In this document: in pieces, positions 20,948 through 49,648 of the stretch
How positions within the stretch are numbered: the first letter of the stretch is position 1
Layout of the letters: every line of letters starts with the position of its first letter
From: a bacterium
GTDB taxonomy: Bacteria > Patescibacteriota > UBA1384 > CAILIB01 > JAUSJZ01
Direction of reading: 5' to 3'
NCBI GenBank assembly: GCA_030647115.1
Contig: JAUSJZ010000040.1
Coordinates: 1 to 56,874 of the forward strand
Length of the DNA: 56,874 nucleotides
Notes under the pieces: model-generated
Seen by the model: the letters and a program-made list of their open reading frames with translations, nothing else
Told to the model about the DNA's origin: nothing
The model's database searches: none
Translations under genes and position numbers: made by a program

Positions 20948-23599
20948 TTATAACCTTTCTTTATTTTTATGGCGCCAGGCAAAGTGGCAGAGTACCAGCA
21001 AATAACCCAAAGCGATTAATTGCCAGCCAGTATAACGAACCTGGGGCTGAAAGACTAGATCGGCTTCAGTAGTGCCGGCGGGTAACTGCCAGGCCATACC
21101 CAGCCCATTAACCGGCACGGGTCGCAGCCGCTTACTACCGTCATTTAACACCCAGTCATCATCGTAAGCCATGCGAAAGATTAACCAGCGCGGGGCGGCC
21201 ACATTGGCTTTAACACTGTAGTCACTGGCTGATTTCTTCGTAAAGACAATATAATCGGCCGCTGTTTTTACCGGCTCGACAATAGTAGCACTAATAGCCG
21301 GTACTGGCTCATGGGGCAAGACGAGTGCTTGGGCTAACCCGGTCGCTCCGTCACCTCTAATAGTTAATACCCCCTCATCAGCATTAGTTGGGGGTAAGGT
21401 TAGTTTCTGCCACCGCCACTCGCCATCAACGTCGTTGCTATCGGTTTTAATAACCTGCTCAAATTGGCCGTAATTCACGGTCACCGTTCTGGCGGTTAGT
21501 CCAAACCAGAGCTTAAGATACAGGGGTGATGCGGTCAATTTCGCCGGTAGGACAACCGATACGGTCCCAGCCGAGGCGCCATTTTGAGTAAAAAGATAAG
21601 GCTCTTTGGTGTAGGCTAAGCTCGAAGCCACCCACCAGGAGCCGCTCGGGCGGACCCAACCAGTCGCAACCGATGCCGCTGGAGTGAAGTTCAGCTGCGA
21701 TAATACGTTTAACTCCTGATTGTTGGACGCCAGTCTATCATCTTGCTCACCAATATAAGGTAGAGACTCAACTTTTGCTCTATCACTTAGTGTCAAATCT
21801 TCTAAATAAAAGACGGCATCCCCGTTGGCTCGAGCTAGCGTGCGCCAGTCATAGGCCGCCGTCACCGGGTTGTCGGCCAAACTGATAAGTGACGGGGTAT
21901 TTTTCACCGCGAAACGCTCGACTCCGGGTAACGTAGTGACCGACACCACCTGTGGCTGGTAACTCAATAATTCATGGTAATTAACGTTATACCAACGATC
22001 GGCCAACAGCGGTTGATTACGAGGGATAGCAAACAGGTCGGGAAATTCCGATTCTAAATCAACTCGAATAAAAATGTTATTACCGGCTACCGCCTGCATC
22101 AGACCGGCTAAATAAGGATCTTTAGCGTAGAGACTCATGACTAAAGCACTTCTGAAGGAGACACTGGGCGACGGCAGATCTAGCACCGACGCTTCGGCCG
22201 GTATCTGGGAGCGGTTGGTCGAGAGCGCGTAAACATCGGCATTGGTCGCTCCGGGCGACTGGTCGTCTTTGAATTTGATAAAACCCAAAGGTGGTAAAAA
22301 GAGCGAGCGGGTAGTGCGGTTAATTTCGGGTTCGGCTGAAGCCGTCAGCAGACGGTAGCTGTCGGGAATAGTGGCCGGCCCCATAAAGTGAGACCACCCT
22401 TTTTGCCAATAAGGTGCAGCCAACCCAATGACCAGCAGTACGCTCGCTAACACGGGTAACGACCGACGGTTGGTTTTACTCCACCAATAGTTTATGGTCA
22501 CTGCAGCTAGCCAAGAGAGACTAAGGGTAATTAAAAATGACCAGTGGTAGACCTCACGGAATAGATTGGTGAATGGCAAATTGAGATAGATCCACCTAAA
22601 GATATTACCCGCCGGTTCGGCCGGACCGAGCGCCATCAACCAAGCCAATGCCAAAATGAAACTAAACAGTCGTACCTCGCGGCGACGGTTGGCTAAGGCC
22701 GGTGCCATAATTGCCAGTAAGACCACTCCAAAACTACCACCGACGAACCACTTACTCTTGAGCAAGAGGTCAAAGAAACTAAAAGTAATGTGATGGTCGG
22801 CGCCAATGAGCGTCCTAATGAGACTATGCGGTAATGAAGCTATGGTAGCGTAAGAGCTACCCAAATTATTGATGTTCGCCGCCACGATCACTCCATTGCG
22901 CAGCACCACACTCAACCACGGCAATTGAACTAGAGCGGCTGACGCGATCATGAGCAAGATGAGACCAAAACCTCGTCTGAAGTAGTTAATGTTTGGAGCC
23001 GTTACTAAATCTACCAGCAGAATAATCAAGAGCATGACGGCGAATTGGGGCTGGGCGCTGATAAGGACAAACAGTACGGGCATGAAATAGCCCCACCAGA
23101 CGACCCGTCGTTGTTCAACGGTGATGAACCAAGCCCGCAAGAACCACGGTGCCAGCGCAATGGCAATTAAATAGAAGATGAATCCCACCACGACCCTAAT
23201 AAAAATGAGGGGTGAGATGACATATATAATACCACCGATGACGGCCGGGAAGAGCGCCAGACCCCGGTTCTTTAAGAGCCAGGTCATACCGACTCCACCA
23301 ACCACAATGGTACCCAATACAATCAGTTTTAGGGTCAGCAACACGGGCATAGTAGTCACTAGACCGAAACCGGAGATCAGCAACAGGGGTATCCAAGCCA
23401 TATTGATACCGACCGCCTGACCCAGAAAGAAGTCGTTCCAGGCGGTAGTGGCATCGTGCCAGGTCTTGGTCCAATCAAATAAGGCAAACCCCCAGTCATA
23501 TTTTAAATTCAAATTGGCACTGGTCAGTAAGGGCCAACAGACAACTAGGCCGATGAGCAGAAAAAGCAACCAAATTAACCAGATCTTACTCCTGTTCAT
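20948..23599 (-). CDS. Large polytopic GT-C-like protein (AftD/YfhO-like), paralog 1
   Basis: About 12 TM helices then a large external domain and C-terminal TM; early YDW, LPFTNLFRE, RSLFLP, YDDDW..VNGLGMAW motifs shared with the paralogs. Confidence 0.7.
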   Translation of the reverse strand: MNRSKIWLIWLLFLLIGLVVCWPLLTSANLNLKYDWGFALFDWTKTWHDATTAWNDFFLGQAVGINMAWIPLLLISGFGLVTTMPVLLTLKLIVLGTIVVGGVGMTWLLKNRGLALFPAVIGGIIYVISPLIFIRVVVGFIFYLIAIALAPWFLRAWFITVEQRRVVWWGYFMPVLFVLISAQPQFAVMLLIILLVDLVTAPNINYFRRGFGLILLMIASAALVQLPWLSVVLRNGVIVAANINNLGSSYATIASLPHSLIRTLIGADHHITFSFFDLLLKSKWFVGGSFGVVLLAIMAPALANRRREVRLFSFILALAWLMALGPAEPAGNIFRWIYLNLPFTNLFREVYHWSFLITLSLSWLAAVTINYWWSKTNRRSLPVLASVLLVIGLAAPYWQKGWSHFMGPATIPDSYRLLTASAEPEINRTTRSLFLPPLGFIKFKDDQSPGATNADVYALSTNRSQIPAEASVLDLPSPSVSFRSALVMSLYAKDPYLAGLMQAVAGNNIFIRVDLESEFPDLFAIPRNQPLLADRWYNVNYHELLSYQPQVVSVTTLPGVERFAVKNTPSLISLADNPVTAAYDWRTLARANGDAVFYLEDLTLSDRAKVESLPYIGEQDDRLASNNQELNVLSQLNFTPAASVATGWVRPSGSWWVASSLAYTKEPYLFTQNGASAGTVSVVLPAKLTASPLYLKLWFGLTARTVTVNYGQFEQVIKTDSNDVDGEWRWQKLTLPPTNADEGVLTIRGDGATGLAQALVLPHEPVPAISATIVEPVKTAADYIVFTKKSASDYSVKANVAAPRWLIFRMAYDDDWVLNDGSKRLRPVPVNGLGMAWQLPAGTTEADLVFQPQVRYTGWQLIALGYLLVLCHFAWRHKNKERL

Positions 23600-23876
23600 A
23601 ACCGAGTATCCCAATTAAAGAGGTACTGATGGTCAGCAACAGTAACAGGTTAGCAAAGGGCCACAGCCACCGCAACCCGACACTACTTTGGAAAAGGAGT
23701 ATTACTAAAATAACCAGAGTGATAGCCACCAACAGCCACCGTACATAAGGGCGCGTCGCCTTAAACCAAAAAGAGAGCTGACTGATAACCGTATAACTAA
23801 CCAACAAAGGAACCGAGAAGGTGAGCCCCAGCGAGACGGCGGTAATTAATAACCAGACGATTGTTTTAGGTATCAC
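23586..23876 (-). CDS. Small membrane protein (about 3 TM helices)
   Basis: 96 aa, hydrophobic, overlaps both neighbours in the operon. Confidence 0.6.
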   Translation of the reverse strand: MIPKTIVWLLITAVSLGLTFSVPLLVSYTVISQLSFWFKATRPYVRWLLVAITLVILVILLFQSSVGLRWLWPFANLLLLLTISTSLIGILGYEQE

Positions 23877-24225
23877 GTCGCTGCTTGATGAAAGCTACTA
23901 CTAAGGCCGTCGTAATGAAGAACAGCACCCAGGTACCTAGATCTTGAGTCAGACCACTGCCCGGCCGTAACCAGGTTACTAACATGAGGGCGACTGTTCC
24001 TAAAAAGCCAGCCGCCATCGAAAATTCAAACGGTATCAGCAAACCAAGCGAGGCCACAAACCAGTAGATTAAAAACTGACGTTCGGGACTAGTCAACTGA
24101 CCGGTTAACTTTGAGAAGACAACCTCACCAAAATAGACCAGAATAAAAGCTAACCCCAACCACTGCCACCGTAAGGGTCGTTGGCGCATGTCATGCTCCA
24201 GTTGTGACTTTAGTCGGCCAATCAT
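23866..24225 (-). CDS. Small membrane protein (about 4 TM helices)
   Basis: 119 aa, hydrophobic, ATGA overlap with the upstream gene. Confidence 0.65.
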   Translation of the reverse strand: MIGRLKSQLEHDMRQRPLRWQWLGLAFILVYFGEVVFSKLTGQLTSPERQFLIYWFVASLGLLIPFEFSMAAGFLGTVALMLVTWLRPGSGLTQDLGTWVLFFITTALVVAFIKQRRDT

Positions 24226-27047
24226 CTTTTAAATCGTTGTCGTTTCTTTTTGAGACCAATAAATAACACCACAATTAAGCTTGACAGCGAGATTAACAGA
24301 CCCCAGTGGAAAGGCGCTTTATTGCCAAATTCAATTCTAAATTGAGTGGCTTGGGTATTAGCCGGCAGCAACCAGGCATTAGCAAAACCGTTCACCTCTA
24401 AATGTTCTAACGGGGTGACCCCTTTAATACGCCAGCCTTTGTTAAAAGCTTGGTTCAGCACCAGGTAATAGGGTTGAGCAGCGGCGGCCACCGTACCTTC
24501 ATACAAACCCGGTTTAAGCCGCTCAAAGTTGATGGTTGGTGGTGTACTGGTGGACTCATTGAGCGAGTTGGTGAGAGCAATATATTCGGGTACGGTGTTA
24601 AACAGTTGTTGTACCGTCAAATCGGCCAGCGCCACTTTAGATGCGACTACCTCACCATCCACCATAGTCGGGTTAGCTAACAGCAGTAACTCGCCCGGCT
24701 GTTCGGAATTAACTTCGACCAAAATGGTCAGCTCTTGCCAGGCACTGTTTTTAGGAAGACTGGCACCGGTCAATTCACCGTCATCATGCAAAAACTTGGC
24801 CTCCAGCCCAATACCGGACTCGGTTCGCGTCAGCGCTTTTACCCGATAGAGACCGGGTTTAATAAGACCTAGTTTGACACTCATACAACCAGGGGCTTCT
24901 TCACTGGAGTAGACCATTTGGACATTGGTTTTACCCCCATTTTCATCGGCCTGATAAAAACTGTCCGGAAATATCAAACGGCCGCGGGCATCTTGGCAGG
25001 GCACCCACTTGGTCTCTTCAAATTTGCCCGAATAAGCCAAATTAGGTGGATTACCAAAATTTAAGGAGAGACTATGTGACCCCACGGTCAGGTTTTGCAC
25101 GTCCTTAGTGTCGATAATTTGGTTATCAATGCGCAACAAATAGGCGGCTAATTCCGGTTGAAATTGTAACGTGCCTTTAAAGTTGGCGGGGTTCTGCCAC
25201 TGCCACACGGCGGTATCACCGTTTAACTGTAATTCTTTCAGATTTAGACTGATGCCCCGCAGTCGCTCTGAAGTAGAAGATTGCCGTTGAGCTCCGTCGG
25301 CCCGATTACTCAACAAGAGCAAATCTTCAGCGGTGAGAGCCGGGTTGAATTTGGCCACCAGTTCTTTGTCTAACGCCACCGTCTGTTTGGCGGTGTAGAG
25401 CTCATCTTTAGCTCCTTCGTTGGCAAAAACCCTAATGGCCGGGGCACCACTATCAACTTCTTTCAGCCAGGTTTTACCGGCCACCAGTTGTAAGAAATAA
25501 TCAGCCAGGCCGTAGTGACGGTATATTTCATTCTCGGTATCAAGGGGTAAACCGACCCATTTGACGCCGGCCTGATCTAACAACCAATCGGCATAAGGGT
25601 GATTGAGCAGATTTTCCGGTAAGGCATCGGCCCCTTTAAACGGGCTCCATTCACCTTCGGCCACGTCTTTCAGACTAATGGCCGGATGCGTTTGGGTATA
25701 GGGAATATACCGTTGCATTACCGGTACCCAGAGGCTCCGGCTGAAACCGGGGTCATTCGCCAGAAATGGTTGAAAAGCCAGATATTCTGCCGGCACCTGA
25801 TGTGGTACAAAGGTACCGTGTCTGGTTTGAGACCAGAACGGATAAAGCGGTAGCCACAACATCATTAAAATTAGACCAGCTCCCAATATTCGACGTTGCA
25901 ACGGTAGTCTATCAACCAAGTAGAGCGCCCCCAAACCAGCCGCTGGAGCCAACCCCAGTAACAACAGAGCAAAAAATTTAGCCGGGTCACGAAATAAGAT
26001 AAACCCCGGCACGTGGGTAAAGAGCCAGGCATAGGTACCGGCGAAGGGCTCGTTACCACCCTTGAGCAGAAAGACACCCATTACTATGAGCGTAAATAGC
26101 AATAAACTAAACCGGTTACGCCGCCACTGCCACAGAGATACTAAAGCCAATAAAAGAGTCAGGTAGAACAACGGTTGAATGGGGTTGAGTATCCCTTCTG
26201 ACCAGGGCCACCAGACGTGGTTAGCCGCTAACCCGTGCGCAACGGTGGCGTAGCTTAGGGAACCGATCCAACCAACATCGGTGTAATTGGTGGGCACCCC
26301 TGCCGCCCCGGCCGTACCCGTCAGTATGGGCCAGAGCCAGTAGGCCGAAAGGAGAGCAGCCAACACCACTACCGCCACCAGCAATACGGCTAGCTTCCCC
26401 AGACGTCGTTCTCTCTGGACAGTAATGGTGAGTTGATAAATAAGCGTCAGCAGACCGGCTAAAAGAGTGATGGCTAACATACGCAGGTCATAGATAGCCT
26501 GAACGGCGATAGTCAGACTCAACCACGCGACGGTTGAGCGTTGGCGTTGCGCTACCAGCTTACTTACCAGATAGAGAGTGAGCGGTGCCAACGCATAACT
26601 GACCGCCAGCGTCATTTGGCCCCCCTGAACGGTGTTGAGAGAGAAAGAATTAAGGGTATAAAGTAGAGCGGTAATAAATGCCCCCAAACGTCGCTTCGTA
26701 ATTAGGTAGCCCCACTGCCAGGCACCAACCCAAGCAAAGACAATAAACGGTACGAACCAGAAGAGACGCGCGGTAATGGAAGGACTAACCTGAAAATTTT
26801 GCCACAGCAGCCCGTACCACCAGTGGATGGCGTTGTGAGCAGCACTGATACTTAAGGGTGAACCGAAGTTGCGCGCCGCATCGAAGATTAACAGATGCTG
26901 ATAATATTCAACCGCGCGGGAAGGTAAGATATGCCACCAGTCACCGTAACTTAAGAAGCCGGGAATAAACCAGGGCCAAAAGACCAGACCTAAAACAACA
27001 ACCGACAACAAGGCCCACCACCAAGCTTTTATCTTTACCGGAAACAT
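24222..27047 (-). CDS. Large polytopic GT-C-like protein (AftD/YfhO-like), paralog 2
   Basis: LSYGDW, LYTLNSF..GGQM, LKGGNEPF..YAWLFTHVPGFILFRDPAKF, RSLWVP, FNKGW..VNGFANAW, C-terminal TM. Confidence 0.75.
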   Translation of the reverse strand: MFPVKIKAWWWALLSVVVLGLVFWPWFIPGFLSYGDWWHILPSRAVEYYQHLLIFDAARNFGSPLSISAAHNAIHWWYGLLWQNFQVSPSITARLFWFVPFIVFAWVGAWQWGYLITKRRLGAFITALLYTLNSFSLNTVQGGQMTLAVSYALAPLTLYLVSKLVAQRQRSTVAWLSLTIAVQAIYDLRMLAITLLAGLLTLIYQLTITVQRERRLGKLAVLLVAVVVLAALLSAYWLWPILTGTAGAAGVPTNYTDVGWIGSLSYATVAHGLAANHVWWPWSEGILNPIQPLFYLTLLLALVSLWQWRRNRFSLLLFTLIVMGVFLLKGGNEPFAGTYAWLFTHVPGFILFRDPAKFFALLLLGLAPAAGLGALYLVDRLPLQRRILGAGLILMMLWLPLYPFWSQTRHGTFVPHQVPAEYLAFQPFLANDPGFSRSLWVPVMQRYIPYTQTHPAISLKDVAEGEWSPFKGADALPENLLNHPYADWLLDQAGVKWVGLPLDTENEIYRHYGLADYFLQLVAGKTWLKEVDSGAPAIRVFANEGAKDELYTAKQTVALDKELVAKFNPALTAEDLLLLSNRADGAQRQSSTSERLRGISLNLKELQLNGDTAVWQWQNPANFKGTLQFQPELAAYLLRIDNQIIDTKDVQNLTVGSHSLSLNFGNPPNLAYSGKFEETKWVPCQDARGRLIFPDSFYQADENGGKTNVQMVYSSEEAPGCMSVKLGLIKPGLYRVKALTRTESGIGLEAKFLHDDGELTGASLPKNSAWQELTILVEVNSEQPGELLLLANPTMVDGEVVASKVALADLTVQQLFNTVPEYIALTNSLNESTSTPPTINFERLKPGLYEGTVAAAAQPYYLVLNQAFNKGWRIKGVTPLEHLEVNGFANAWLLPANTQATQFRIEFGNKAPFHWGLLISLSSLIVVLFIGLKKKRQRFKR

Positions 27048-27056
27048 AATTCCATT

Positions 27057-29951: not shown

Positions 29952-29954
29952 CAC

Positions 29955-38314: not shown

Positions 38315-38425
38315 AAATATAATCTTACTTCTACACCCGACTTTACCAGATATCGTCGGGGTTGGCGAGCTTTACCCAAACGTTAAAATGTGACATTATT
38401 TTAGTGTCTAGTAGTCACTAATTGT

Positions 38426-40278: not shown

Positions 40279-42369
40279 TTATCGTCGCTCCAATATTTGG
40301 CCACCGGTTTGACTGACACCAGCCACCGGCTGGTAACCGTAACTAAGCATATTTTCGACGGTGGCCCCGTAGCGATTATTAGGCGCCAGCCACAACCAAC
40401 GTGGTTGGTACTTCTCTAGATACGCACCCAAAGTGACCGCATCGGTCACCGCCAGCAGGTCGGGTTTTAAAACCTTGTAAATCTGTTCGGTGTCTTTGAC
40501 CGCAAAGTTCAAAATCGGTTTCGGGCCCATGGCCGCGTTCACCCGACAGTGGGCGTAAAAAGGATACATAATCTCGCGCACCTGATTGTAGAGATCGACC
40601 GGGCTGTTCGGATCTTCGGTGTTAGGCGGTAGGACAAAGAAGCAGCTGTCGAAGCGGGCCCGTAACCGGCGAATCTGGGCCACACTGTTAATTTCGGCCT
40701 GCGGTAACGAACGATCAACCGGCACATCGGCCAGTACTCCCAAACCGGTCGGCAGTGAAATTAAGGTCAAGACAATCAACCAGACTTTCGGGTAGGACCA
40801 ACGTGAAATGACAAACGCCGTCAAAATTGAGAGCGGAATAAAGGCCGTAAAGAGAAACTGCCACTGATTACCCAACGTAAACCACAGCAGCAATGTCGCT
40901 AAAATGGCGCTGACCGAGACCGAGAATAAGAGCAAGACCAGCGAGCGCTGGGCGGCGGTGAGCGACCTGGCAAACAGGGGTGCCAAGAGACCGATTACCT
41001 TAAACGAAATGGCTACCAGCATAAACCCGAGCGAGATATACCAAAAATAATGCACCAGACTGGGCGGCAAATTATAGTCACGCCAAAACCGCAGTTGAGC
41101 GATGATACCAGGTGAGGCCTGCTCAATATATTGGTGGATGGCCGGGACATTATCTAAGGCTCCCACCGGGTGTGATAACGGGCTAAACATCACGTTTATC
41201 TCCTTCGGAATAAACAGTTGGGCGCGGTTGTGCCAGATAAGCGGTAGCCCGGTGCTTAAAACACCCACCAGTAGCCACCAGACGGCCCCCAAAGTTTTAG
41301 TGACGGTTCGTTGACGGCCAATTAAACTGACCATAATTTCTAAGATCAGATAGATAATAACCCCACCGACGAAGGCCATAAAGGCCTGGGCCTTCATCAG
41401 AATCAAGATTCCGGCCGCCGCTCCCGCCAAGACATAGGTCAGCTGCTTGGCCCTAATTTTAGGCTGCATGAGCGCCTGCCAGAATAAAACCAGGGCTAGC
41501 AGTAAAAACAGGGCAGCGAACTGGTGCGAATTACCGTTAATGTAGGCGTGTTTATGATCGGTAAAGACGGTCATCCACCACCGCGTCGGCTCGTAACGGT
41601 AGGCTACCGGAAAGAGATAACCCAACGTATCCCACCAGAAAAAGATCACCACGGCCATGAGCGAGACAAACCGGTTTTGAGTTAAACAGCGGGTTAAGAC
41701 GTAAATAGCAAGGCCGACGGCGAGGCCGATAGCGGTCGGCAATAACATAAAATTTATCAGCAGCGGGTTGAGGCCGAGACTATGATAAGCCGTCTGGAGT
41801 ACGGTTCCAAAATAATGGTACTGCAACCAAATATTCTGCCAGTAAGGGTGAATGGGCGGCACCTGTTCAAAGATAGTCGTGGCGTGACCGGTCATCATCA
41901 ACCGCTCTCCACCCAACCACATCGACATAATGACCCCGTCATTTTTGTCTACCAGACCAGTGGCCAGAGTCGGTAGTGTCCAGTCCAGGGGCATCAAGAG
42001 AAAAAAGACGAGCAGCCATAAGTGTGAGCGGCGCCAATTTTTGATATCTTCTCTAAGAGCCGTCACGGCTCCACCCCAATAGGCCAACCCGGCTACTAGC
42101 ACTGCTCCGACCAGAAAACCGACCTCACCCCAACCAAGCGCCACCGCCAAGTAACGCCAAAGAAATAGATATAGATTACCGACCATAAACGATAGGGCAA
42201 CATTAAACAGACCAAGCTTAATATGCAGTTTTTGTAACACAAAGCGACCGGGCAGTATTACTAAGACAGTTGTCACCAACCCGAACCAGACCCCGTTTGT
42301 TGCCACCAACCAAACATTCGCCAGGCTCAAATTGGTCACTCTGGCCAGATGCTGTTGCAGTAAAGTCAT
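40279..42369 (-). CDS. Polytopic membrane protein, probable GT-C-fold glycosyltransferase (distinct from the four paralogs)
   Basis: 696 aa, about 14 TM helices; PPIHPYW..LQYHYF external loop, GILILMKAQ, short C-terminal soluble domain. Confidence 0.6.
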   Translation of the reverse strand: MTLLQQHLARVTNLSLANVWLVATNGVWFGLVTTVLVILPGRFVLQKLHIKLGLFNVALSFMVGNLYLFLWRYLAVALGWGEVGFLVGAVLVAGLAYWGGAVTALREDIKNWRRSHLWLLVFFLLMPLDWTLPTLATGLVDKNDGVIMSMWLGGERLMMTGHATTIFEQVPPIHPYWQNIWLQYHYFGTVLQTAYHSLGLNPLLINFMLLPTAIGLAVGLAIYVLTRCLTQNRFVSLMAVVIFFWWDTLGYLFPVAYRYEPTRWWMTVFTDHKHAYINGNSHQFAALFLLLALVLFWQALMQPKIRAKQLTYVLAGAAAGILILMKAQAFMAFVGGVIIYLILEIMVSLIGRQRTVTKTLGAVWWLLVGVLSTGLPLIWHNRAQLFIPKEINVMFSPLSHPVGALDNVPAIHQYIEQASPGIIAQLRFWRDYNLPPSLVHYFWYISLGFMLVAISFKVIGLLAPLFARSLTAAQRSLVLLLFSVSVSAILATLLLWFTLGNQWQFLFTAFIPLSILTAFVISRWSYPKVWLIVLTLISLPTGLGVLADVPVDRSLPQAEINSVAQIRRLRARFDSCFFVLPPNTEDPNSPVDLYNQVREIMYPFYAHCRVNAAMGPKPILNFAVKDTEQIYKVLKPDLLAVTDAVTLGAYLEKYQPRWLWLAPNNRYGATVENMLSYGYQPVAGVSQTGGQILERR

Positions 42370-42469
42370 ACTGTAATTTTAGCAGCAACCCGTCTTTTAC
42401 AAACTACGTTGGTCTGATTGATCTGATTGTCTTTCTTTGAAATTTTATTGGTAGAAAAACATTCTTCCT

Positions 42470-45193
42470 TTAAGAGTGGTTTTCGTCAGCTTTGGCATAT
42501 TTTAAATGACTGACAACAGACAAATAAACTAGAATTAGGAGTGATGACAGGGTTACTATTAACCCAACATGATAAAATTTTTCTGTTCTGTAAGACCATC
42601 TTATGGTGTTGTCGGTTGCATCATTAATTGTTGCTAAACCATAGTAATTCCCGGCGATGAGTTTACCTGTAGATGGTATCCAATCTCTGTCGTATTGCAT
42701 CTGCATATTAACAATCCCTTTTGATAATCCACTCATTATTACTTCAGTGTTTGAGCTGTCATTGAATTCTTTAATAAATGAAGATTGAATGTTGCTACTC
42801 TGTTTCTGGAGTTGATTGACATAACGTTCGACTTCTACTTTTGTTGTTAAGAATGCATCAGAAGGTACTAGCAGAACTTTTTCTATCGTTAGAGAACCCT
42901 TATCTGTCTCTTCTATTTTAAAACTGCTGTCGGTAGTTGTTATATTAATAGGCCCTACTATATGCCAGTTATTGATAACTGGTGAGTCTTTTTTATTAGA
43001 GTCTAATTCAATAAGAGTCTGTTCATTCATGGCTACTTTACCCTTACCCCATCTATTAAATGCTTGCACATATTTTACAAAAACGTAGTAGCTTTGATTG
43101 TCTTTTATTTTATCTTCAAGCGAATAGCTGATCGTATCGGGCACATTTGTCACTATAACCGAACCAGTCTGAGTCAGTATTCCTGATTCGCTAGTTAGGC
43201 TTTTAATACTACCTAGTGCAGACCACCCAATTTCCTCAGGCAAAATCTTTCTTTTTAATATTGGCTTAATTTCATATTGGTCACTAAATACCCTACCTAA
43301 TAAATCGTCTATTGTATAATTATTTTGAATAATCAGATTGCAGGTAATACATTTTTTTAAAATATCTAGCGGATCATTCTCCTGCTGATTAAGCATTACC
43401 ACCGGTTTATTTTGATATGTCTTATAGAAATTTAAATCACCTACCAACAGTATTCCGTTTTCATTGGAGACGGCTTTGAACAATTTAAGGTTTTTATAAA
43501 TTTCATATCCAACTGGTGCACTGTCAATTTTAATAAAATCTTTATCATCTCTTATGGCGTCGTTTATTTTTTTTACTATGTCCTTGTCGAGAACAGAACT
43601 ATCCACTATAAACAACTCTGCACCGGTGTTTTTCAACATATTTAACCCTTCGACCTGATTCGTATTTAGAACACCCATTGCGTATCGTAAATATTGACTG
43701 ATGAGTCCAAAAGTACTATTTATGGTGACATTTTCACCATTCAGTCTAAGCATTGAATCATATGGTGTTTTATAGATACTGCCAGTTTTTATTTGTGGAG
43801 ACCAATCGTAACCGGTAGCAATATCTTGATTTTGCGGTAAATAAATAACTCTGGTTCGACTGGAATAGTTCTCTTTTAACCAATCATTTAACTTAAAATA
43901 CTTAGTTGGTACGTCTATCGCTTTGATTCTCTCATTGGCATTTCCTCGCAAAATAACCGGACATGCCCAAATAAATAATAAGATCATACTTAATGCAAAA
44001 ATAAATTTCTTTGGTTTCTGCTTACAAAGAATCTCCAATATTGCCGCTAGGCCTATGGCATAGGCTAACACGACAAATATTTCATACCTGGTTACCGATC
44101 TATTGAAGTTCATTAAAGGCAGGTGTTGAAAAAAATAATAATTAATTTTGGCAAATGGTACACCAGTACCAACTGCAAATACGCCAGCTGCTAACGCCGT
44201 TATTATTAAGATTTTTTTATACCTTATTTTTCCCCAAAAAAGACCAAACCAAGCAAGTATAATTACTAAAACAAGTGGAACAATTGTTATTTCTCCAGCA
44301 GACATTGAGGGACTCCCCGTTATTATATCCTTCCACTTATTTGTCATTGGATAGCTAGTATTAATAGATTCTGTTGCTTCATTACCAATGTTGTGATTCA
44401 ACTTTAAGGGGAAGAGAACATAGGCCATCAATAGCAATAACCACATAATTGTTAATGCAGTTATTTTAAACAGTTTTTTTAGTACAATTGTGTTTCCTTG
44501 TTTTTTAAATTTAATAATCGTAACAATAAAATAAATAATTGTCCCATAACTGACGATAACCAAAGTTCCAATACCGGCAGTAAAAAGTAATGAATATAAT
44601 AATATTAGTTGATAGTGATAATACTTGATTGTTAATTTATTACCATCTGATAATGCTTTAGTAAAATAATACAATGTAGATATTAACAACAATATTAATC
44701 CTTGTTCTAAACTGTAAACAATGCCCACAAACATATAGGAAACAGCTTTATAGGGTACCAATACAAAATAACTGGCCGCAACGAAAGATAATAAATACAG
44801 ATTTTTTCTAAAACCAAATACTGGTAATAACCTCAAAATAGCTAAATACTGGACAATGATAGTGCCTACATAAAATATTCCAAAACCATACCGACCAAAT
44901 ACTTGCTGTAATAGAGCTATAAAACCAAAAAATGGTAAAAATAATGGAAAACTGTAAGTAAATATATCTGGTAGACCAGGGTTGATATAAATAGAATGGG
45001 TTGAATATCCGAGTGAGGCATTAGTGGCCCACGCATGTCGCCATACTTTCAACCAAGAACCAATATCGTATGATGATTTTATTTCGCCGCCAATGACGAC
45101 ATCTCCTCTGAAAAGTTCGCTGACAATAATATAACCAACGATTGCTGCTGCAATCACATATAGAACTAATGACCAGCTAGGTGTCTTTCTCAT
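42470..45193 (-). CDS. Large polytopic GT-C-like protein (AftD/YfhO-like), paralog 4, markedly AT-rich
   Basis: VGTGVPF..YYFFQHLPLMNFNRSVTRY, RVIYLP, YDRDW..GNYYG, C-terminal TM; same architecture as paralogs 1-3. Confidence 0.72.
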   Translation of the reverse strand: MRKTPSWSLVLYVIAAAIVGYIIVSELFRGDVVIGGEIKSSYDIGSWLKVWRHAWATNASLGYSTHSIYINPGLPDIFTYSFPLFLPFFGFIALLQQVFGRYGFGIFYVGTIIVQYLAILRLLPVFGFRKNLYLLSFVAASYFVLVPYKAVSYMFVGIVYSLEQGLILLLISTLYYFTKALSDGNKLTIKYYHYQLILLYSLLFTAGIGTLVIVSYGTIIYFIVTIIKFKKQGNTIVLKKLFKITALTIMWLLLLMAYVLFPLKLNHNIGNEATESINTSYPMTNKWKDIITGSPSMSAGEITIVPLVLVIILAWFGLFWGKIRYKKILIITALAAGVFAVGTGVPFAKINYYFFQHLPLMNFNRSVTRYEIFVVLAYAIGLAAILEILCKQKPKKFIFALSMILLFIWACPVILRGNANERIKAIDVPTKYFKLNDWLKENYSSRTRVIYLPQNQDIATGYDWSPQIKTGSIYKTPYDSMLRLNGENVTINSTFGLISQYLRYAMGVLNTNQVEGLNMLKNTGAELFIVDSSVLDKDIVKKINDAIRDDKDFIKIDSAPVGYEIYKNLKLFKAVSNENGILLVGDLNFYKTYQNKPVVMLNQQENDPLDILKKCITCNLIIQNNYTIDDLLGRVFSDQYEIKPILKRKILPEEIGWSALGSIKSLTSESGILTQTGSVIVTNVPDTISYSLEDKIKDNQSYYVFVKYVQAFNRWGKGKVAMNEQTLIELDSNKKDSPVINNWHIVGPINITTTDSSFKIEETDKGSLTIEKVLLVPSDAFLTTKVEVERYVNQLQKQSSNIQSSFIKEFNDSSNTEVIMSGLSKGIVNMQMQYDRDWIPSTGKLIAGNYYGLATINDATDNTIRWSYRTEKFYHVGLIVTLSSLLILVYLSVVSHLKYAKADENHS

Positions 45194-46304
45194 TGGTTGA
45201 GTTCACTACATTGTTGATTGCCCGGTCTAAGGCAGCCTCTGTCTTATCCCAGGTTCTGGTCTGACTGACTTCCCAGGCCTGCTGACGTAATCGAGCGTAT
45301 TTGGTCGGGTTTTGCCACAACTCCACCACCGACTCGGCCAGCGCCGCCGGATTATTACTTTTACTCAACAACCCCGTTTGATTGTGTAGATTACTGTCTC
45401 TAACCCCGGCGATATTATAGGTAACTCCGACCGTGCCTAGGGCATTGGCCTCCGGTACCGTCAGACCCCAACCTTCTTTGATGGAGGTAATCAAGACCAG
45501 ATGGGCTCGCTGCATCAACTCCTTTTTCTGGTCGGTCGAGACAAACCCCCAGAATTTAACCTGTTTCAAAATGCCTAACCGCTCTGCCAGTCGTTGTAAG
45601 TACTGTTCATACATCTTCACACCACTTCCTAAAATCCATAATTTTGCTTCTGGTACTTCTTTAACCACCTGCTGCAAGGTCTGTAGGGCATGGTCGGGTC
45701 GCTTGAGGGGCACTAATCGGGCGGCGAAGATAAGAGTCAGCTCTTTCTCTTTGGTGGCAAGGGCTGGCAGTTTGGCGAGCGGTTTGGTGTCACAGGCCAG
45801 TGGTAGGGTGACTATTAGTGCCCGATAACCAAATTGCCGCAAATCGGCCGTCGTTGAGGAAGAGATGGAGACCGCCGGTACATCGCGATATTGTCGAATA
45901 AAACTTGGCTCTAACCACTGATAGAGATAACCGAACGGCCACGGTAGCATAAATTTGGCAATCGGGCCGGCCACTTCGTTGGCGTAGAACAAGACCGGAC
46001 ACTTAGCCCAACGGGGAGCAAAAAATGGCAGACCGTGAGTTTGGTCTATTATGAGGTCAATTTCGGTCGAATGTTGGCGGTACCATCGTTTGGCAGAGCC
46101 TTGCACCGTTAACGGACCCCCGGCCCGAATTACCTTGATGCCATCTAGGGTCTCTTCGGCTTTGGCACCGGTGTAGGTCATGGCAAACCAGGTAACGCTA
46201 TCACCCAACTTAATTCGGTGTTTCAACAACTCACCGACAATATACTCGGCGCCGCCGCTTTTGGGGTTTTTGGGATCGCGCCAATTTAGAAGTAGGATCT
46301 GCAC
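45177..46304 (-). CDS. Glycosyltransferase family 4
   Basis: LLLNWRDPKNPKSGGAE, ARLVPLKRPD, SIKEGWGLTVPEANALGT. Confidence 0.93.
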   Translation of the reverse strand: MQILLLNWRDPKNPKSGGAEYIVGELLKHRIKLGDSVTWFAMTYTGAKAEETLDGIKVIRAGGPLTVQGSAKRWYRQHSTEIDLIIDQTHGLPFFAPRWAKCPVLFYANEVAGPIAKFMLPWPFGYLYQWLEPSFIRQYRDVPAVSISSSTTADLRQFGYRALIVTLPLACDTKPLAKLPALATKEKELTLIFAARLVPLKRPDHALQTLQQVVKEVPEAKLWILGSGVKMYEQYLQRLAERLGILKQVKFWGFVSTDQKKELMQRAHLVLITSIKEGWGLTVPEANALGTVGVTYNIAGVRDSNLHNQTGLLSKSNNPAALAESVVELWQNPTKYARLRQQAWEVSQTRTWDKTEAALDRAINNVVNSTNEKDT

Positions 46305-46308
46305 ATTG

Positions 46309-46890
46309 TTATCGTAACAAATTAACCGCCTCTTTCATTGAGGCTACGTTTTTGGCGAATGAACAGACTTCATTCGCTGAAAATTCGTAATTAACTATTA
46401 TTAAATTATTGATACCAGCTGCTTGTCCGGCTGCTACGTCCTTTACCCGATCACCAATCACCCAGGAATTTGAGAGGTCAAGGTTGTGTTTTTGGGCTAG
46501 CTGAAGCACTAAACCGGGCGCCGGCTTACGACAACCGCAAGCTGGGTGATAGTAGTTGTGATTGACAACTCTGGCCCGATTATCACTATGCAGACAAGTC
46601 GCAACATCGGTGATGATTACCCCGAACTGTTTCAGCTGCCGGGTCATTAAATCGTTCGTTGCCACAACAATGCCCTCATGAGCAATTTTACCGTAAGCCA
46701 CACCCGGTTGATTGGTCACCACAAAGAGTGCGTAGCGTGGGTCTAATTGCTGTAATGCTTCAACTACACCATCGATAAAAACAAAATCAGCCGGTACCCG
46801 CGGGCTGTCAAAGGCCGCATCAGCGTAAGCGGGCATCGTATTGATAGTACCGTCACGATCGAGAAAGATTGCCGACTGTTTAACGGTCAT
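46309..46890 (-). CDS. gmhB: HAD-IIIA phosphatase, D,D-heptose 1,7-bisphosphate phosphatase-like
   Basis: AIFLDRDGTIN, VVTNQPGV, CLH..CGCRKPAPG, SWVIGDRVKDVAAG; adjacent to the heptose kinase-like and isomerase genes. Confidence 0.85.
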   Translation of the reverse strand: MTVKQSAIFLDRDGTINTMPAYADAAFDSPRVPADFVFIDGVVEALQQLDPRYALFVVTNQPGVAYGKIAHEGIVVATNDLMTRQLKQFGVIITDVATCLHSDNRARVVNHNYYHPACGCRKPAPGLVLQLAQKHNLDLSNSWVIGDRVKDVAAGQAAGINNLIIVNYEFSANEVCSFAKNVASMKEAVNLLR

Positions 46891-46899
46891 TGTCACGAA

Positions 46900-47973
46900 T
46901 TATATACGATTAGCGCCGCCCGGCTGCTTAGCCAGACTAACGTTTTTACAGTGCCAGACGGCGTTATCTTCTTCAGAATATTCAATGATACGCTGTCGCG
47001 TCTCGGGGTCGTCACACAAGATTAAGAAACAACCGCCGCCGCCCGCTCCCATAATGCGTATCAGTTTTACCGCCTCTAAATCACGAACCCGATTGTAAAA
47101 CGGTTGGGCGTGGGCGGGAATAACACCCGGGTCCATGGTAATTTTCAGCTCCCAAGACTGCTTGGCCGCCGCAGCGAAACGATCAATCTGGTAATCGACC
47201 AGCGCTCGGGCGGCATCACGAGTCATTTCAGACATCTGTCGCATCAGCGCCACACTCGGTTTCTGGCCGTCAATGTGTTGCGCGGCCGTTGCCATCCGTT
47301 CGTTAATGCGAAAGATCATCAAAGAATCAGATAGCCAAGCGACCGACTCGGCCGGAAAAGTATAGGCCTCTTCGTAAACGGGTCTAGTGTAAACCCAACC
47401 GCTAACATCCACCGCCCGTCTAATGGGCATGGAGATGAGGGGTGAACCGGTGAGATTGATAGCCAACGAGCCTAGATAATCTTGTACGCCATTGCTTTTA
47501 CCTAAAGATAAATTGTTTTCGGTCGGGCCGGTTTCGAGAAAAGCGGCGAGGCGCACCTCATCTTGGGGGGATAGCGGTACCGACCAGTGTTTCCAAGACC
47601 AGAGGGCGTGATTGAGCGAGAGCATGAGGGCGCAAGAACCACCGAGACCCATCTGGGCCGGTACGTCGGCGTTGACATCAATCTGGCACGGGCCGACTTT
47701 GTGGTGGAGTACGGCTGCCCGCACGTAATCGTGTTTAATGTCGTGGGGGTCAGCCACCGTATCGCGGGTGTCGCCCGCTTTGACGAAATAAGTGCGGTTA
47801 TCGTAAGAATGGTAGATTCTGGTCTCGACGGCCCACTGCAGCGCCACGGCCAGCATAAAACCATCGACACCGTAATCAATAATGGCGTCACGGCGATCCA
47901 TACTACCCAAACTGGCCCGCACGCTTTTGCCCGCCCGAATGCCGTTCATGTGGATTGATTCGCGATAACTCAT
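46900..47973 (-). CDS. GHMP-family sugar kinase, divergent HddA (heptose-7-phosphate kinase)-like
   Basis: ADVPAQMGLGGSCA (PxxxGLGSS-like), GVQD, SWELK, IMGAGGGGCFL; sits between gmhA and gmhB. Confidence 0.78.
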   Translation of the reverse strand: MSYRESIHMNGIRAGKSVRASLGSMDRRDAIIDYGVDGFMLAVALQWAVETRIYHSYDNRTYFVKAGDTRDTVADPHDIKHDYVRAAVLHHKVGPCQIDVNADVPAQMGLGGSCALMLSLNHALWSWKHWSVPLSPQDEVRLAAFLETGPTENNLSLGKSNGVQDYLGSLAINLTGSPLISMPIRRAVDVSGWVYTRPVYEEAYTFPAESVAWLSDSLMIFRINERMATAAQHIDGQKPSVALMRQMSEMTRDAARALVDYQIDRFAAAAKQSWELKITMDPGVIPAHAQPFYNRVRDLEAVKLIRIMGAGGGGCFLILCDDPETRQRIIEYSEEDNAVWHCKNVSLAKQPGGANRI

Positions 47974-48036
47974 AGCCACAGCTTAGCCGAAACGTTATTA
48001 ATTTGCTACTATAAAAGCCAATCACTAATTTAATTT

Positions 48037-48612
48037 ATGGAAAACGCCACTCCTCAAACCTTCGTCAATGAGTATTTTGATAGCTTTGCCCGTCTAGTGA
48101 CCGAGGCCAAAACCCTGGCGCCCGATCTCAACACCGCTAAACACGTCTTACAAACCGCCGGTGAAAACGGCCAGACCATCTATCTTGTCGGTAACGGTGG
48201 CAGCGCCGCCATGGCTAGTCACCTCGCGGTTGATCTAACCAAAAGCGCCAAACTGCGAGCGATGACCTTTAACGACTCCTCCCTTTTTACCTGTTTAGCG
48301 AACGATCGTGGCCACGAAAACTGGATGGCCGAAGCAATCAGACACTACGGACGACCCAATGATGTTTTAATTGCCATCTCCTCTTCCGGCAACTCGGCCA
48401 ACGTGCGCAATGCCTGCGTTGCCGCCAAAGAGCTAAACTTCGCTCACGTTATCACTTTCTCCGGTTTCAAGGCGGACAATCCCTTGCGTCAGCTAGGTGA
48501 TCTCAATTTTTATGTCTCCGATTCGGGCTACAATCACGTCGAAAATATGCATCAGTTCCTGTTAACGTCGATTGTTGACCTCATTATCGGTAAGAGAGAG
48601 TACTCCTCGTAA
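48037..48612 (+). CDS. gmhA: Phosphoheptose (sedoheptulose-7-phosphate) isomerase, SIS domain
   Basis: VGNGGSAAMASHLAVD, TCLAND, DVLIAISSSGNSANV, VENMH. Confidence 0.88.
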   Translation: MENATPQTFVNEYFDSFARLVTEAKTLAPDLNTAKHVLQTAGENGQTIYLVGNGGSAAMASHLAVDLTKSAKLRAMTFNDSSLFTCLANDRGHENWMAEAIRHYGRPNDVLIAISSSGNSANVRNACVAAKELNFAHVITFSGFKADNPLRQLGDLNFYVSDSGYNHVENMHQFLLTSIVDLIIGKREYSS

Positions 48613-48661: not shown

Positions 48662-48835
48662 CTACAGCTTCGACTCGAAGAGGTCGCAGTGCAGGTGCGG
48701 TCGGTGCTCGGCGACGGCTTCGGAGATAGCGGTCAGGTCGGTGCCTTTCAGCTGGTTGACCTGCTGCCAGGCCTCGACCACCACCTTGTCGGCCGCCGGC
48801 CCTTCCACGAGAGCCAGAAAGTGTTCAGCATTCAC
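48662..48835 (-). CDS. Small protein (57 aa), not in the ORF track
   Basis: GGAGG SD 8 nt before GTG; MNAEHFLALVEGPAADKVVVEAWQQVNQLKGTDLTAISEAVAEHRPHLHCDLFESKL*; strong G/C third-position bias; terminator follows. Confidence 0.7.
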   Translation of the reverse strand: MNAEHFLALVEGPAADKVVVEAWQQVNQLKGTDLTAISEAVAEHRPHLHCDLFESKL

Positions 48836-48901
48836 GGCGTTTTCCTCCGATTAAGCTAATATAGCCGCTTTGGCCACGCCTGACAAATAGCGTGGTTTTT
48901 G

Positions 48902-49648
48902 TTACTTGCCGACCAGTTTAAAGTGCGGCTGATCGTAGTAGTGCAATATATGTAAGCGATACCAGACGGCCAGCATGTCATTAAACATTTTACGGATGGC
49001 TTTCAGGTTAGCCGCCCCACCACCGGCATCGTTAAAGTGCATATTCACCGGTGCCTCAAAGAACCGCTTGTAGCCCAGTTTTTTGGCAATCACCAACAAC
49101 TCCAAATCAAAGGCGTACTGCTTGACCGTAGCTCGGGGCATGACATCCTCAATTAGCTTCCGCTTGGCCACTTTCAAACCGGTCTGGGTGTCACTGACAT
49201 CGAGCCGAAAGAGCAGCCGAATCAGCATGCGCCAACCCCAACTGAAGATACGGCGCGATTTGGGGTAATTTACCTTACTGGCCGGGTGCACTTTACTACC
49301 CACCACAATATCGGCATCAAAGATCTCGAGCAGTTTAACGAACCGGTCAATATGATCGGGGTGAAAGTCACCGCCGGCATCAAAGAAGGTGACAATCTCA
49401 CCCTGACTGTGTTTGACTCCATAATAGATGGCGTAGCCCTTGCCGCGGTTGGGAGTGTAAGAGAGCACCCGCAGGTAAGAGCAGTTGACCGTTTTGGCTT
49501 TGGCGGCCGTCTCGTCGGGGCTGCCATCAACGACCACAATTATCTCTTTTGAATAGTCCAGTTTATCGAGCTCATCACGAAGATTGCGAATCGTTCGGGC
49601 AATGTTCGCCTCTTCTTTATAGGCCGGTATAATAACCGATAATTTCAT
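48902..49648 (-). CDS. Glycosyltransferase family 2, polyprenyl-phosphate sugar synthase-like (DPM/DPG synthase)
   Basis: LSVIIPAYKEE, VVDGSPDET, NRGKGYA, FFDAG, DIVVGSK, SDTQTGLK, YAFDLELL. Confidence 0.9.
   Translation of the reverse strand: MKLSVIIPAYKEEANIARTIRNLRDELDKLDYSKEIIVVVDGSPDETAAKAKTVNCSYLRVLSYTPNRGKGYAIYYGVKHSQGEIVTFFDAGGDFHPDHIDRFVKLLEIFDADIVVGSKVHPASKVNYPKSRRIFSWGWRMLIRLLFRLDVSDTQTGLKVAKRKLIEDVMPRATVKQYAFDLELLVIAKKLGYKRFFEAPVNMHFNDAGGGAANLKAIRKMFNDMLAVWYRLHILHYYDQPHFKLVGK

Follow-up and report, generated by a model that had tools for sequence, protein, structure and literature searches.

The window analysed here, 56,874 nucleotides of contig JAUSJZ010000040.1 (assembly GCA_030647115.1), contains four genes for large membrane proteins (designated paralogs A, B, C and D), a gene for a fifth polytopic protein (E) and two genes for glycosyltransferases of family 2 (GT2) resembling dolichyl-phosphate mannose synthase (DPMS) (Table 1). 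Judged by gene content, this array of AftD-like proteins is embedded in a Wzx/Wzy-type cell-envelope glycan locus of ~44 kb: from ~11.4 kb to 55.4 kb, nearly all genes relate to glycan synthesis. A sequence-only reading of the same DNA had described five giant GT-C-like proteins with their own donor synthases and flippase. All seven open reading frames (ORFs) that it named were present on the strands it gave, its starts being the first ATGs inside slightly longer ORFs.

Four large membrane proteins of one family

In pairwise phmmer comparisons (Z = 1e6), only B and C matched each other significantly (3e-57), so an independent profile was built from 25 short family members (at most 720 residues), none of them in the clades of the four paralogs. 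With the same Z, this profile detected B (1.3e-116), C (3.9e-97), A (4.9e-29) and D (8.1e-15), but none of four other polytopic proteins of the window, i.e. E, the 454-residue membrane protein, the Wzy-like protein and the Wzx flippase. Thus the paralogy of A to D is real and E is distinct, as had been proposed.

A strict-threshold Kyte-Doolittle scan gave 8–11 hydrophobic segments per paralog. Compared with the short forms, each paralog carried an insert between its membrane core and its C-terminal module (A 464–789, B 560–833, C 532–858, D about 477–807). The inserts of B and C were homologous (hhalign probability 97.3%, E 2.7e-11, 199 columns); a relation of the A insert to either was undetected by hhalign (probability 0.8% for A–B and 0.1% for A–C).

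Conserved residues were counted in an alignment of 60 family sequences. The acidic residue directly after the first transmembrane helix (TM1) was Asp in 59 of them and Glu in one, paralog D (GGEI); in the window, this column is D40 of A, D36 of B, D42 of C and E37 of D. The early acidic motif predicted for the first external loop was thus kept in all four paralogs, and an acid stood there in 60/60 sequences. The Arg of an FR(D/E) motif and a C-terminal Trp were invariant (60/60 each), and in the R.L(W/F/Y).P motif Arg occurred in 57 and Pro in 59 of the 60. Positions conserved in at least 90% of this alignment included G149, P161, W240, G335, P339, P352, F357, R447 and P452.

None of the four proteins matched a Pfam family even at E ≤ 10, which covers GT-C_AftD (PF11847, gathering score 26 bits) and YfhO (PF09586), and no carbohydrate-binding module (CBM) family was found in them by Pfam. 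In NCBIfam, searched at E ≤ 1, the only model matched was MmpA (NF053599, cut-off 210 bits), by C (3.6e-14, 52.2 bits), B (1e-08, 34.3 bits) and D (1.2e-3, 17.6 bits); A did not match it.

Relationship to AftD and the GT-C fold

The profile of the 60 family sequences matched the solved AftD of M. abscessus (6w98, 6wbx) with an E value of 6e-24. Two segments carried the match: profile positions 49–245 in the core aligned with AftD 54–246 (i-E 3.6e-07), and positions 666–795 in the C-terminal module aligned with AftD 1148–1280, its beta-sandwich and TM12 (i-E 2.1e-10). A profile of the four paralogs matched the C-terminal module of AftD alone (1e-4).

An AlphaFold2 model of paralog C (mean pLDDT 92.4, pTM 0.88) showed a helical membrane core to residue ~415, a mixed alpha/beta part (~430–535), an all-beta part (541–928) and a final helix (931–964). 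When it was compared with the PDB by Foldseek, AftD (6wby, 6wbx and 6w98) took ranks 1–3 (E 3.1e-16 to 4e-15, TMq 0.46–0.50), and AglB, PglB, STT3, ArnT, EmbC and AftA were at ranks 4–34 among the 34 matches with E ≤ 1e-3; other matches were beta-sandwich-rich proteins (TM score ~0.1), reflecting the external domain. The GT-C fold, with AftD as nearest structure, was thus read from the model of C, and together with the profile match it bears out the proposal that all four paralogs belong with AftD and YfhO among the GT-C-fold proteins.

On profile and model evidence, the four paralogs fall into a single large family, homologous to mycobacterial AftD and so far without a Pfam model. All share an N-terminal GT-C core of ~11 helices, in which a near-invariant Asp directly follows helix 1. 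Beyond the core lie an external domain of mixed alpha/beta structure, a lineage-specific insert of all-beta structure (~270–330 residues), a conserved beta-sandwich and a final membrane helix, the last two being the counterparts of the structural beta-sandwich and TM12 of AftD. As described in passages of bioRxiv 10.1101/2019.12.22.885152, AftD has an 11-helix GT-C core of ~600 residues, three CBMs, the structural beta-sandwich, TM12 and a TM13–16 bundle that binds acyl carrier protein, and its essential residues include K39, D41, E251, K361 and D474. The first-loop Asp is at profile position 36; with the offset of +5 and ungapped extrapolation over 13 positions, it would correspond to AftD D41. 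Paralog A has a Lys two residues before this Asp, as AftD has K39.

In a separate 15-sequence alignment of B/C-type proteins, W715, C718 and C744 (C numbering) of the external domain were at least 90% conserved. The conserved cysteine pair would fit a disulfide in the extracytoplasmic domain; residues 721–725, between the two cysteines, were the only ones of the C model with pLDDT below 50.

Two predicted donor synthases and candidate flippases

The first donor-type gene encodes a fusion in which a GtrA-type four-helix membrane domain stands N-terminal to a DPMS/ArnC/GtrB-like GT2 domain. Both domains of the predicted fusion were recovered by Pfam, GtrA_DPMS_TM at residues 33–148 (7.4e-23) and Glycos_transf_2 at residues 166–335 (6.7e-29). 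Its best PDB match was the DPMS of P. furiosus (5mlz, 2.3e-20, residues 160–388), followed by chondroitin synthase (3.1e-12) and then by ArnC and GtrB sll0501; the NCBIfam model PpgS gave 1.5e-18, far below its cut-off. The second protein likewise matched Glycos_transf_2 (9.3e-26) and, as its best PDB match, 5mlz (2.6e-17, residues 1–215), then ArnC and Synechocystis GtrB, with PpgS again below cut-off (8.4e-17). DPMS, ArnC or GtrB appeared in 0/13 and 0/3 significant PDB matches of two control GT2s of the locus, the 341-residue protein of the cytoplasmic block and the one next to paralog A, respectively. Both donor-type proteins aligned with the catalytic domain of 5mlz over its full extent. 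By similarity, therefore, two GT2s are of the polyprenyl-phosphate sugar synthase type, as the earlier reading had it, and their activity is predicted accordingly as DPMS/ArnC/GtrB-like. The 341-residue control GT2 has a 29-residue hydrophobic segment (269–297) after its catalytic domain, a GtrB-like layout with PDB matches of other types.

The second donor-type gene is the last of a co-directional run that begins with the 454-residue, 11-segment membrane protein and continues with an enzyme of the short-chain dehydrogenase/reductase (SDR) type and a UDP-glucose dehydrogenase; base 49648 belongs both to its start and to the end of the gene before it. In NCBIfam, the dehydrogenase matched a TuaD-like model (6.9e-156) and, above cut-off, nucleotide-sugar dehydrogenase; the SDR enzyme matched dTDP-glucose dehydratase, UDP-xylose synthase and ArnA models, all below cut-off. 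The dehydrogenase and the SDR enzyme are likely a nucleotide-sugar supply for the adjacent GT2. By analogy with the Arn and Rgt pathways, the run suggests that this GT2 may load a UDP-glucuronate-derived sugar onto lipid.

The sequence-only reading had given the system a flippase of its own. A GtrA_DPMS_TM domain was indeed present, but only as a domain fused to a synthase. Candidate flippases in the window are this domain, Wzx (which may serve the repeat unit) and the 454-residue membrane protein. The last had no Pfam, NCBIfam or PDB match and was unlike the AftD-like family, E and the Wzx of the window; from its position, it may be conjectured to be a lipid-sugar flippase. Its assignment to the MOP family of flippases, on an apparent N-terminal likeness, found no support from any tool and was rejected. 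The fusion gene adjoins E and lies 2.2 kb from D, which in turn is 3.7 kb from the second donor-type gene; A to C are 9–18 kb away.

Protein E

Protein E had no sequence match in Pfam (E ≤ 10), NCBIfam (E ≤ 1) or the PDB, nor did a profile of four sequences (E and the three relatives found by a word search) match the PDB; a Pfam scan of these relatives returned chance-level matches alone. With hhalign, E aligned to the 60-sequence AftD-like alignment with a probability of 79% (E 1.6e-5, 110 columns), a weak lead, and to the alignment of the four paralogs with a probability of 0.5%. Our predicted model of E was poor (pLDDT 60.3, pTM 0.61). Its 26 best PDB matches were all GT-C enzymes, headed by DPY19, AglB and STT3, with E values of 6.5e-3 or worse and TM scores of 0.19–0.33, and 0 matches reached E ≤ 1e-3. 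The Atlas's own model of E (pTM 0.84) had TM scores of 0.80 to a cluster named RgtA/B/C/D-like and 0.74 to DUF2298. E is thus probably, as far as these models go, a GT-C-fold enzyme of a different, rare family. Of the five GT-C-like proteins first proposed, four stand as AftD-like paralogs, and the status of the fifth is carried by weak evidence.

Phylogeny of the paralogs and the divergent copy D

Trees of the core were built with FastTree (154 tips) and IQ-TREE (59 tips, the named clades and 30 random others) from a taxon sample in which the choice of query profile introduces a bias. The B clade (7 tips) and the C clade (10 tips) were sisters, with support of 0.985 (FastTree) and 96 (ultrafast bootstrap, UFBoot). 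The A clade comprised 11 tips, with D as its sister (0.952 and 100, respectively), and the branch to D was 1.89 substitutions per site long against a median of 0.61.

D was also unusual in composition, with a G+C fraction of 0.334 (0.291 at third codon positions, GC3) compared with 0.465–0.558 (GC3 0.449–0.651) in the other 31 genes measured. A low-GC tract at 42370–45193 (0.22–0.40 in 200-bp windows, ~0.51 to either side) matches the extent of D plus the 100-bp spacer downstream of it. D was the odd one out at nine conserved positions (D42->E, W43->I, P161->Q, R195->G, W240->V, H281->T, F357->N, D359->S and D513->N). A word-index homolog search with D returned D itself alone, and no convincing repeats were found flanking it. 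From these features, we take D either to have been acquired recently from a low-GC donor or to be evolving fast. The four paralogs are not equivalent copies: B and C are sister lineages, A is a separate one, and D has a foreign composition and has lost nine conserved residues.

A conserved gene block

A profile scan of genome contigs with the 15-sequence alignment returned one locus for comparison, 22.8 kb of a metagenome-assembled genome of Ca. Saccharibacteria (designated L001). Its genes are, in order and with identity to the window ortholog, GT2 (54%), methyltransferase (50%), double GT4 (48%), two methyltransferases (57% and 55%) and two GT4s (60% and 64%), then C, B, the small membrane ORF, A, GT2, GT4 and Wzx (identities in Table 1). 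The window genes at 29955–38314 thus have L001 orthologs 48–64% identical in the same order. The A/small ORF/B/C block is an old, conserved unit, and from the shared gene order the genome of the window is probably that of a member of the Saccharibacteria (candidate phyla radiation, CPR/Patescibacteria). What L001 shares with the window is this block, set among cytoplasmic GT4, GT2 and methyltransferase genes and Wzx.

The block proteins diverge faster than their cytoplasmic neighbours. When the two parts of the window and L001 ortholog pairs were compared separately, the core was 46–50% and the external part 25–35% identical, so that the membrane core was better conserved than the external domain, as had been predicted. 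Within orthogroups, identities to the window copy for core, insert and C-terminal module were 0.44, 0.35 and 0.38 for A, 0.43, 0.23 and 0.34 for B, and 0.42, 0.27 and 0.33 for C.

In two more assemblies, A-, B- and C-type proteins may likewise share a contig, as their longest contigs agree in length (15623 and 471088 bases), although such agreement is no more than a proxy. A contig of 34838 bases from a close relative of the window likewise carries C (86%) and E (78%), which suggests linkage as a proxy and not as proof.

The small ORF between A and B was 36% identical to L001:15703-16056, with a conserved block VYFGEVV...LTSPERQF. It belonged to no Pfam or NCBIfam family and was not GtrA-like by hhalign; its Atlas matches were below 0.9 and unnamed. 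By analogy, it could be a helper subunit like GacJ.

At the left edge of L001 (37–1453), a partial ORF resembles the C-terminus of D (29% over 106 residues). It is followed by a 297-residue LPG_synthase_TM/flippase-like protein (PF03706, 4.8e-11; TIGR00374, 1.5e-07, below cut-off) without a counterpart among the window proteins compared.

Distribution of the family

A profile search seeded with the four paralogs against 1.84 billion representatives returned 10289 proteins at E ≤ 1e-3, of which the weak end may include other membrane proteins, 4012 at E ≤ 1e-10 and 891 at E ≤ 1e-30. Every third of 147 relatives (P0025-P0171) was scanned with Pfam, and 37 of these 49 had no Pfam family at E ≤ 1e-3. 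GT-C_AftD, DUF6541, YfhO and PTPS_related are members of one GT-C clan; 7/49 relatives matched one or another of these four, and two of the seven reached a curated cut-off. PF11847 itself was matched by three of the 49, all below 26 bits, and by P0019, a distant match of C, at 63.8 bits. The last ~100 positions of the YfhO model were matched by two, P0055 (32.8 bits, above the cut-off of 28.5) and P0127 (25.6 bits, below it). CBM_4_9 or Laminin_G_3 modules occurred in 5/49. Literature searches outside subscription journals, on AftD-like, DUF3367 or GT-C proteins in Saccharibacteria or Patescibacteria, found nothing relevant. As the four paralogs and most of their relatives are unannotated, the link to AftD gives a testable function to a family of thousands in metagenomes.

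Gene content of the locus

As shown in Table 1, the glycan locus contains five single GT4 genes, one double GT4 and four GT2 genes, with four S-adenosylmethionine (SAM) methyltransferases, a Wzy_C protein, a Wzx flippase and a DUF4012 protein. Its sugar-supply genes are heptose-pathway-like genes, the UDP-glucose dehydrogenase and the SDR enzyme.

Table 1. Genes of the glycan locus in the window (positions in the window; the L001 column gives percent identity of the ortholog in locus L001)
Feature	Position	Strand	L001	Remarks
GT4	11417-12652			Pfam/NCBIfam
Wzy_C-type polymerase/ligase	12556-13866			Pfam/NCBIfam
Exported protein without family	15578-17236			552 aa; one hydrophobic segment near N-terminus; flanks locus
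Wzx flippase	17237-18739		65	Pfam
GT4	18740-20074		68	Pfam
GT2, not DPMS-like	20071-20916		58	
Paralog A	20948-23614	-	41	888 aa; TTG start, first ATG at 23599; separate lineage, predicted AftD-like GT-C
Small membrane protein	23866-24225	-	36	119 aa; about 3 hydrophobic segments; between A and B, same position in L001
Paralog B	24222-27047	-	42	941 aa; predicted AftD-like GT-C; sister lineage of C
Paralog C	27057-29954	-	35	965 aa; GTG start, first ATG at 29951; predicted AftD-like GT-C; modelled
Cytoplasmic block adjoining C	29955-39145			Two GT4s, two methyltransferases, double GT4 (778 aa), methyltransferase, GT2, fourth methyltransferase; Pfam
GT2, not DPMS-like	37289-38314		54	341 aa; within cytoplasmic block
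Fourth methyltransferase	38426-39145			Pfam; within cytoplasmic block
GtrA-GT2 fusion	39130-40278	+		ORF from TTG 39073, first ATG 39130; predicted polyprenyl-phosphate sugar synthase
Protein E	40279-42369	-		696 aa; about 13 hydrophobic segments, C-terminal soluble part of ~140 aa; convergent with GtrA-GT2 gene
Paralog D	42470-45193	-		907 aa; divergent family member
GT4	45177-46304			End overlaps start of paralog D by 17 bases; normal GC
GmhB-like HAD phosphatase	46309-46896			Pfam; NCBIfam GmhB below equivalog cut-off
GHMP kinase	46900-47979			Pfam; NCBIfam HddA below equivalog cut-off
GmhA-like SIS isomerase	48037-48612			Pfam; NCBIfam GmhA below equivalog cut-off
Second DPMS-like GT2	48902-49648	-		248 aa; no hydrophobic segment; predicted polyprenyl-phosphate sugar synthase
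UDP-glucose 6-dehydrogenase	49648-51069	-		Pfam UDPG_MGDP_dh N, central and C domains
SDR epimerase/dehydratase/decarboxylase-type enzyme	51066-52040	-		Pfam Epimerase
Polytopic membrane protein	52021-53385	-		454 aa; about 11 hydrophobic segments; heads the SDR/dehydrogenase/GT2 run
DUF4012 protein	53416-55398			1.7e-25; 660 aa; one hydrophobic segment near N-terminus; flanks locus

The GmhB-like, GHMP kinase and GmhA-like genes suggest activated-heptose synthesis; a nucleotidyltransferase for its last step was not recognised in the window by Pfam or NCBIfam. Among the genes from 45177 to 48612, NCBIfam cut-offs were reached solely by the HAD-IIIA and histidinol-phosphatase domain models.

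The window as a whole has a G+C content of ~51%, with tRNA-Lys and tRNA-Ser genes at its bounds, and an Rfam scan of it found nothing beyond these two. Its left end holds housekeeping genes (histidine kinase, DnaJ, DnaK, GrpE, ComEC, YebC, RuvC and a VanW/PG-binding protein). ComEC looks split into ORFs 5734–7068 (DUF4131 and Competence) and 6903–7895 (Lactamase_B), which overlap in different frames; a frameshift, an error in the sequence or a true split would account for this. A promoter and terminator scan of 20000–32500 gave the same counts as expected from shuffled sequence.

Proposed pathway and alternatives

The reading that we favour, with moderate confidence, is that GT2s make lipid-linked sugars, which are flipped and then transferred by GT-C enzymes outside the cell onto a Wzx/Wzy-type envelope glycan. 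At the cytoplasmic face, the two donor-type GT2s would load sugars from nucleotide sugars onto polyprenyl phosphate, one anchored by its own GtrA-type domain and the other soluble and fed by the adjacent UDP-glucose dehydrogenase and SDR enzyme. The GtrA domain, Wzx or the 454-residue membrane protein would flip the lipid-linked sugars. A, B, C and probably E would each transfer a sugar outside the membrane, in a pairing with the donors that we infer, onto a glycan from the neighbouring cytoplasmic GT4, GT2 and methyltransferase enzymes, the polymer itself being made by cytoplasmic enzymes, Wzx and Wzy. The differing external inserts would select the acceptor site. D may be a recently acquired and strongly diverged copy that serves a strain-specific decoration or is catalytically impaired.

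Several observations weigh against this reading. Two candidate donors face five candidate transferases, and E is assigned to GT-C on weak evidence. Within the 22.8 kb of L001, the block occurred without a DPMS-like GT2, a GtrA-GT2 fusion or E, so that donor and GT-C genes are not tightly linked there; the proposed neighbourhood of transferases and donor synthases thus holds within the locus of the window but does not extend to L001. No initiating phosphoglycosyl transferase family was found in Pfam scans of the window, which leaves the acceptor pathway incomplete as read. The function of this branch of AftD-like proteins is assigned by likeness. A and D had no significant pairwise phmmer match to B or C, a profile of the membrane core alone (7 sequences) did not reach AftD in the PDB, and of the five essential residues of AftD only D41 (with K39 in A) was matched, by extrapolation. 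D has lost nine family-conserved residues. Finally, MmpA is, in passages of PMC8698533, a paralog of the AftD core without a known catalytic role.

A, B and C might instead build the backbone, acting one after another to extend and branch the polymer outside the membrane from lipid-linked monosaccharides in the manner of the Aft and Emb enzymes, while the GT4s and GT2s only make a primer. The closest solved relative, AftD, builds arabinan; A, B and C are kept as separate orthologous lineages in a fixed order, as for successive non-redundant steps; and some long relatives carry CBM_4_9 or Laminin_G_3 modules. On the other side, Wzx, Wzy_C, at least seven cytoplasmic GT domains and four methyltransferases suffice for a usual repeat unit, there are only two donor synthases, and Pfam showed no CBM family in the proteins of the window itself. 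We consider this possibility unlikely.

A bolder proposal, and to us a somewhat more doubtful one, is that the ultrasmall, epibiotic Saccharibacteria would build part of their envelope glycan outside the cell by a mycobacteria-style relay of AftD-like enzymes. The A/small ORF/B/C block would then be one membrane complex performing three ordered, non-redundant transfers from lipid-linked sugars, and horizontally acquired copies like D would be swapped in, changing the surface glycan and recognition by hosts or phages. If this were true, the 891 representative clusters at E ≤ 1e-30, hardly any of which Pfam covers, would form a major unrecognised class of extracytoplasmic glycan-building enzymes outside the Actinobacteria.

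It is improbable that the acceptors are proteins, with the GT-C enzymes O-glycosylating pilins, S-layer or other surface proteins in the way of PMT, PglB/AglB and pilin arabinosyltransferases. The fold is shared with AglB, PglB and STT3 in the matches of the C model, the best PDB matches of E are DPY19, AglB and STT3, and type IV pili matter in Saccharibacteria according to PMC11623550; but Pfam recognised neither a pilin nor an S-layer gene in the locus, AftD as the nearest relative has a glycan acceptor, and the genes are embedded in a polysaccharide cluster conserved as a block.

Least probable of all, and applying most to D, where Glu replaces Asp and nine conserved positions are lost, is that these proteins, or some of them, keep only the AftD membrane fold and serve as non-catalytic scaffolds or in lipid handling, as proposed for MmpA: MmpA is their sole NCBIfam match and AftD itself has a protein-interaction role (bioRxiv 10.64898/2026.07.31.741767), but that match lies far below cut-off and spans the membrane core alone of a much shorter protein (474 residues, in the same passages of PMC8698533), A, B and C keep the first-loop Asp, FR(D/E), R..P and C-terminal Trp near-invariant across the 60 members, and donor-type GT2s lie beside them.

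The foreign composition of D indicates that gene transfer can alter the transferase repertoire. For Saccharibacteria, whose genomes are small and which live on the surface of host bacteria, devoting 44 kb and four or five extracytoplasmic transferases to surface chemistry is a large investment. The glycan locus may plausibly determine how the cells attach to hosts, how sensitive they are to phages and how the immune system recognises them, and the conserved A/B/C block offers a defined genetic target in cultivable relatives.

Comparison with known systems

AftD and the window proteins have in common the 11-helix GT-C core, the Asp just after TM1, the mixed alpha/beta external domain and a beta-sandwich before a re-entrant helix equivalent to TM12, with more beta domains between. 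They differ in size (890–965 residues in the window, about 1400 in AftD), and the window proteins have an all-beta insert of their own in place of a recognised CBM family, lack TM13–16 and do not match PF11847 (formerly DUF3367) at E ≤ 10. Their host is non-actinobacterial and has no arabinogalactan. MmpA (NCgl2761/Rv0226c) is likewise a paralog of the AftD membrane core; as far as passages of PMC8698533 describe it, it has one small external domain and acts in trehalose-mycolate export, and the window proteins score only 18–52 bits against its model.

The multi-component transmembrane glycosylation systems of Gram-positive bacteria are similar in plan, in that a GT-C enzyme outside the cell uses a C55-P-sugar that a GT-A enzyme (GT2) has made and a GtrA- or Wzx-type protein has flipped (passages of PMC8035078). 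Those described there include CsbB/GtcA/YfhO, GtlA/GtcA/GtlB, GacI/GacJ/GacK/GacL, CsdAB/CD/EF with CflA of L. lactis and GtsABC of B. anthracis, and they offer three precedents: several GT-C enzymes of one cell may share a flippase, a soluble GT2 may depend on a small helper with three TM helices (GacJ), and the flippase may be of the Wzx type (GacK). In the window, by contrast, the transferases do not match Pfam YfhO, GtrA is fused to a synthase and not free, four or five GT-C genes accompany two donor synthases in one locus, and the small ORF has no detectable likeness to any named family.

The GtrABC cassettes for O-antigen glucosylation in Shigella and Salmonella phages also combine a GtrB-like GT2, GtrA and a polytopic transferase, which in GtrABC is serotype-specific, and Synechocystis GtrB sll0501 was among the significant matches of both donor-type GT2s. 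Such a cassette usually has one GtrC. The locus in the window differs in having no compact three-gene cassette, no visible phage context and AftD-like transferases with large external domains. The DPMS of P. furiosus, the best solved relative of both donor-type GT2s, joins a GT2 to a GtrA_DPMS_TM-type domain as the fusion does. Its catalytic domain occupies residues 21–243 of 374, so its membrane part is C-terminal, whereas in the window fusion GtrA is N-terminal and GT2 C-terminal; the second window GT2 has no membrane domain at all.

The run of UDP-glucose dehydrogenase, SDR enzyme and ArnC/DPMS-like GT2 (48902–52040) recalls the Arn pathway (Ugd-ArnA-ArnC-ArnT): ArnC was among the top PDB matches of the GT2, and the SDR enzyme weakly matched ArnA and UDP-xylose synthase models. 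Homologs of ArnB, ArnD and ArnE/F were not recognised in the window, and the NCBIfam scores were far below equivalog cut-offs. In the Rgt pathway of Rhizobium, RgtE together with RgtA–D modifies lipid A and core; in the Atlas, E was structurally closest to an RgtA/B/C/D-like cluster. The organism of the window is, unlike the hosts of the Arn and Rgt pathways, presumably monoderm and without lipid A.

The system is therefore not of an undescribed kind, as had been suggested, but fits the multi-component transmembrane glycosylation systems, some of which already have several GT-A/GT-C pairs (in the passages of PMC8035078 cited above). The kind of system was known, and AftD had already been named as a GT-C relative in the sequence-only reading. 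What appears new is the firm link of an unmodelled family to AftD, the trimmed architecture without a CBM family or TM13–16, the A/small ORF/B/C block conserved among Saccharibacteria, the fusion with GtrA and GT2 in reversed order and the foreign copy D.

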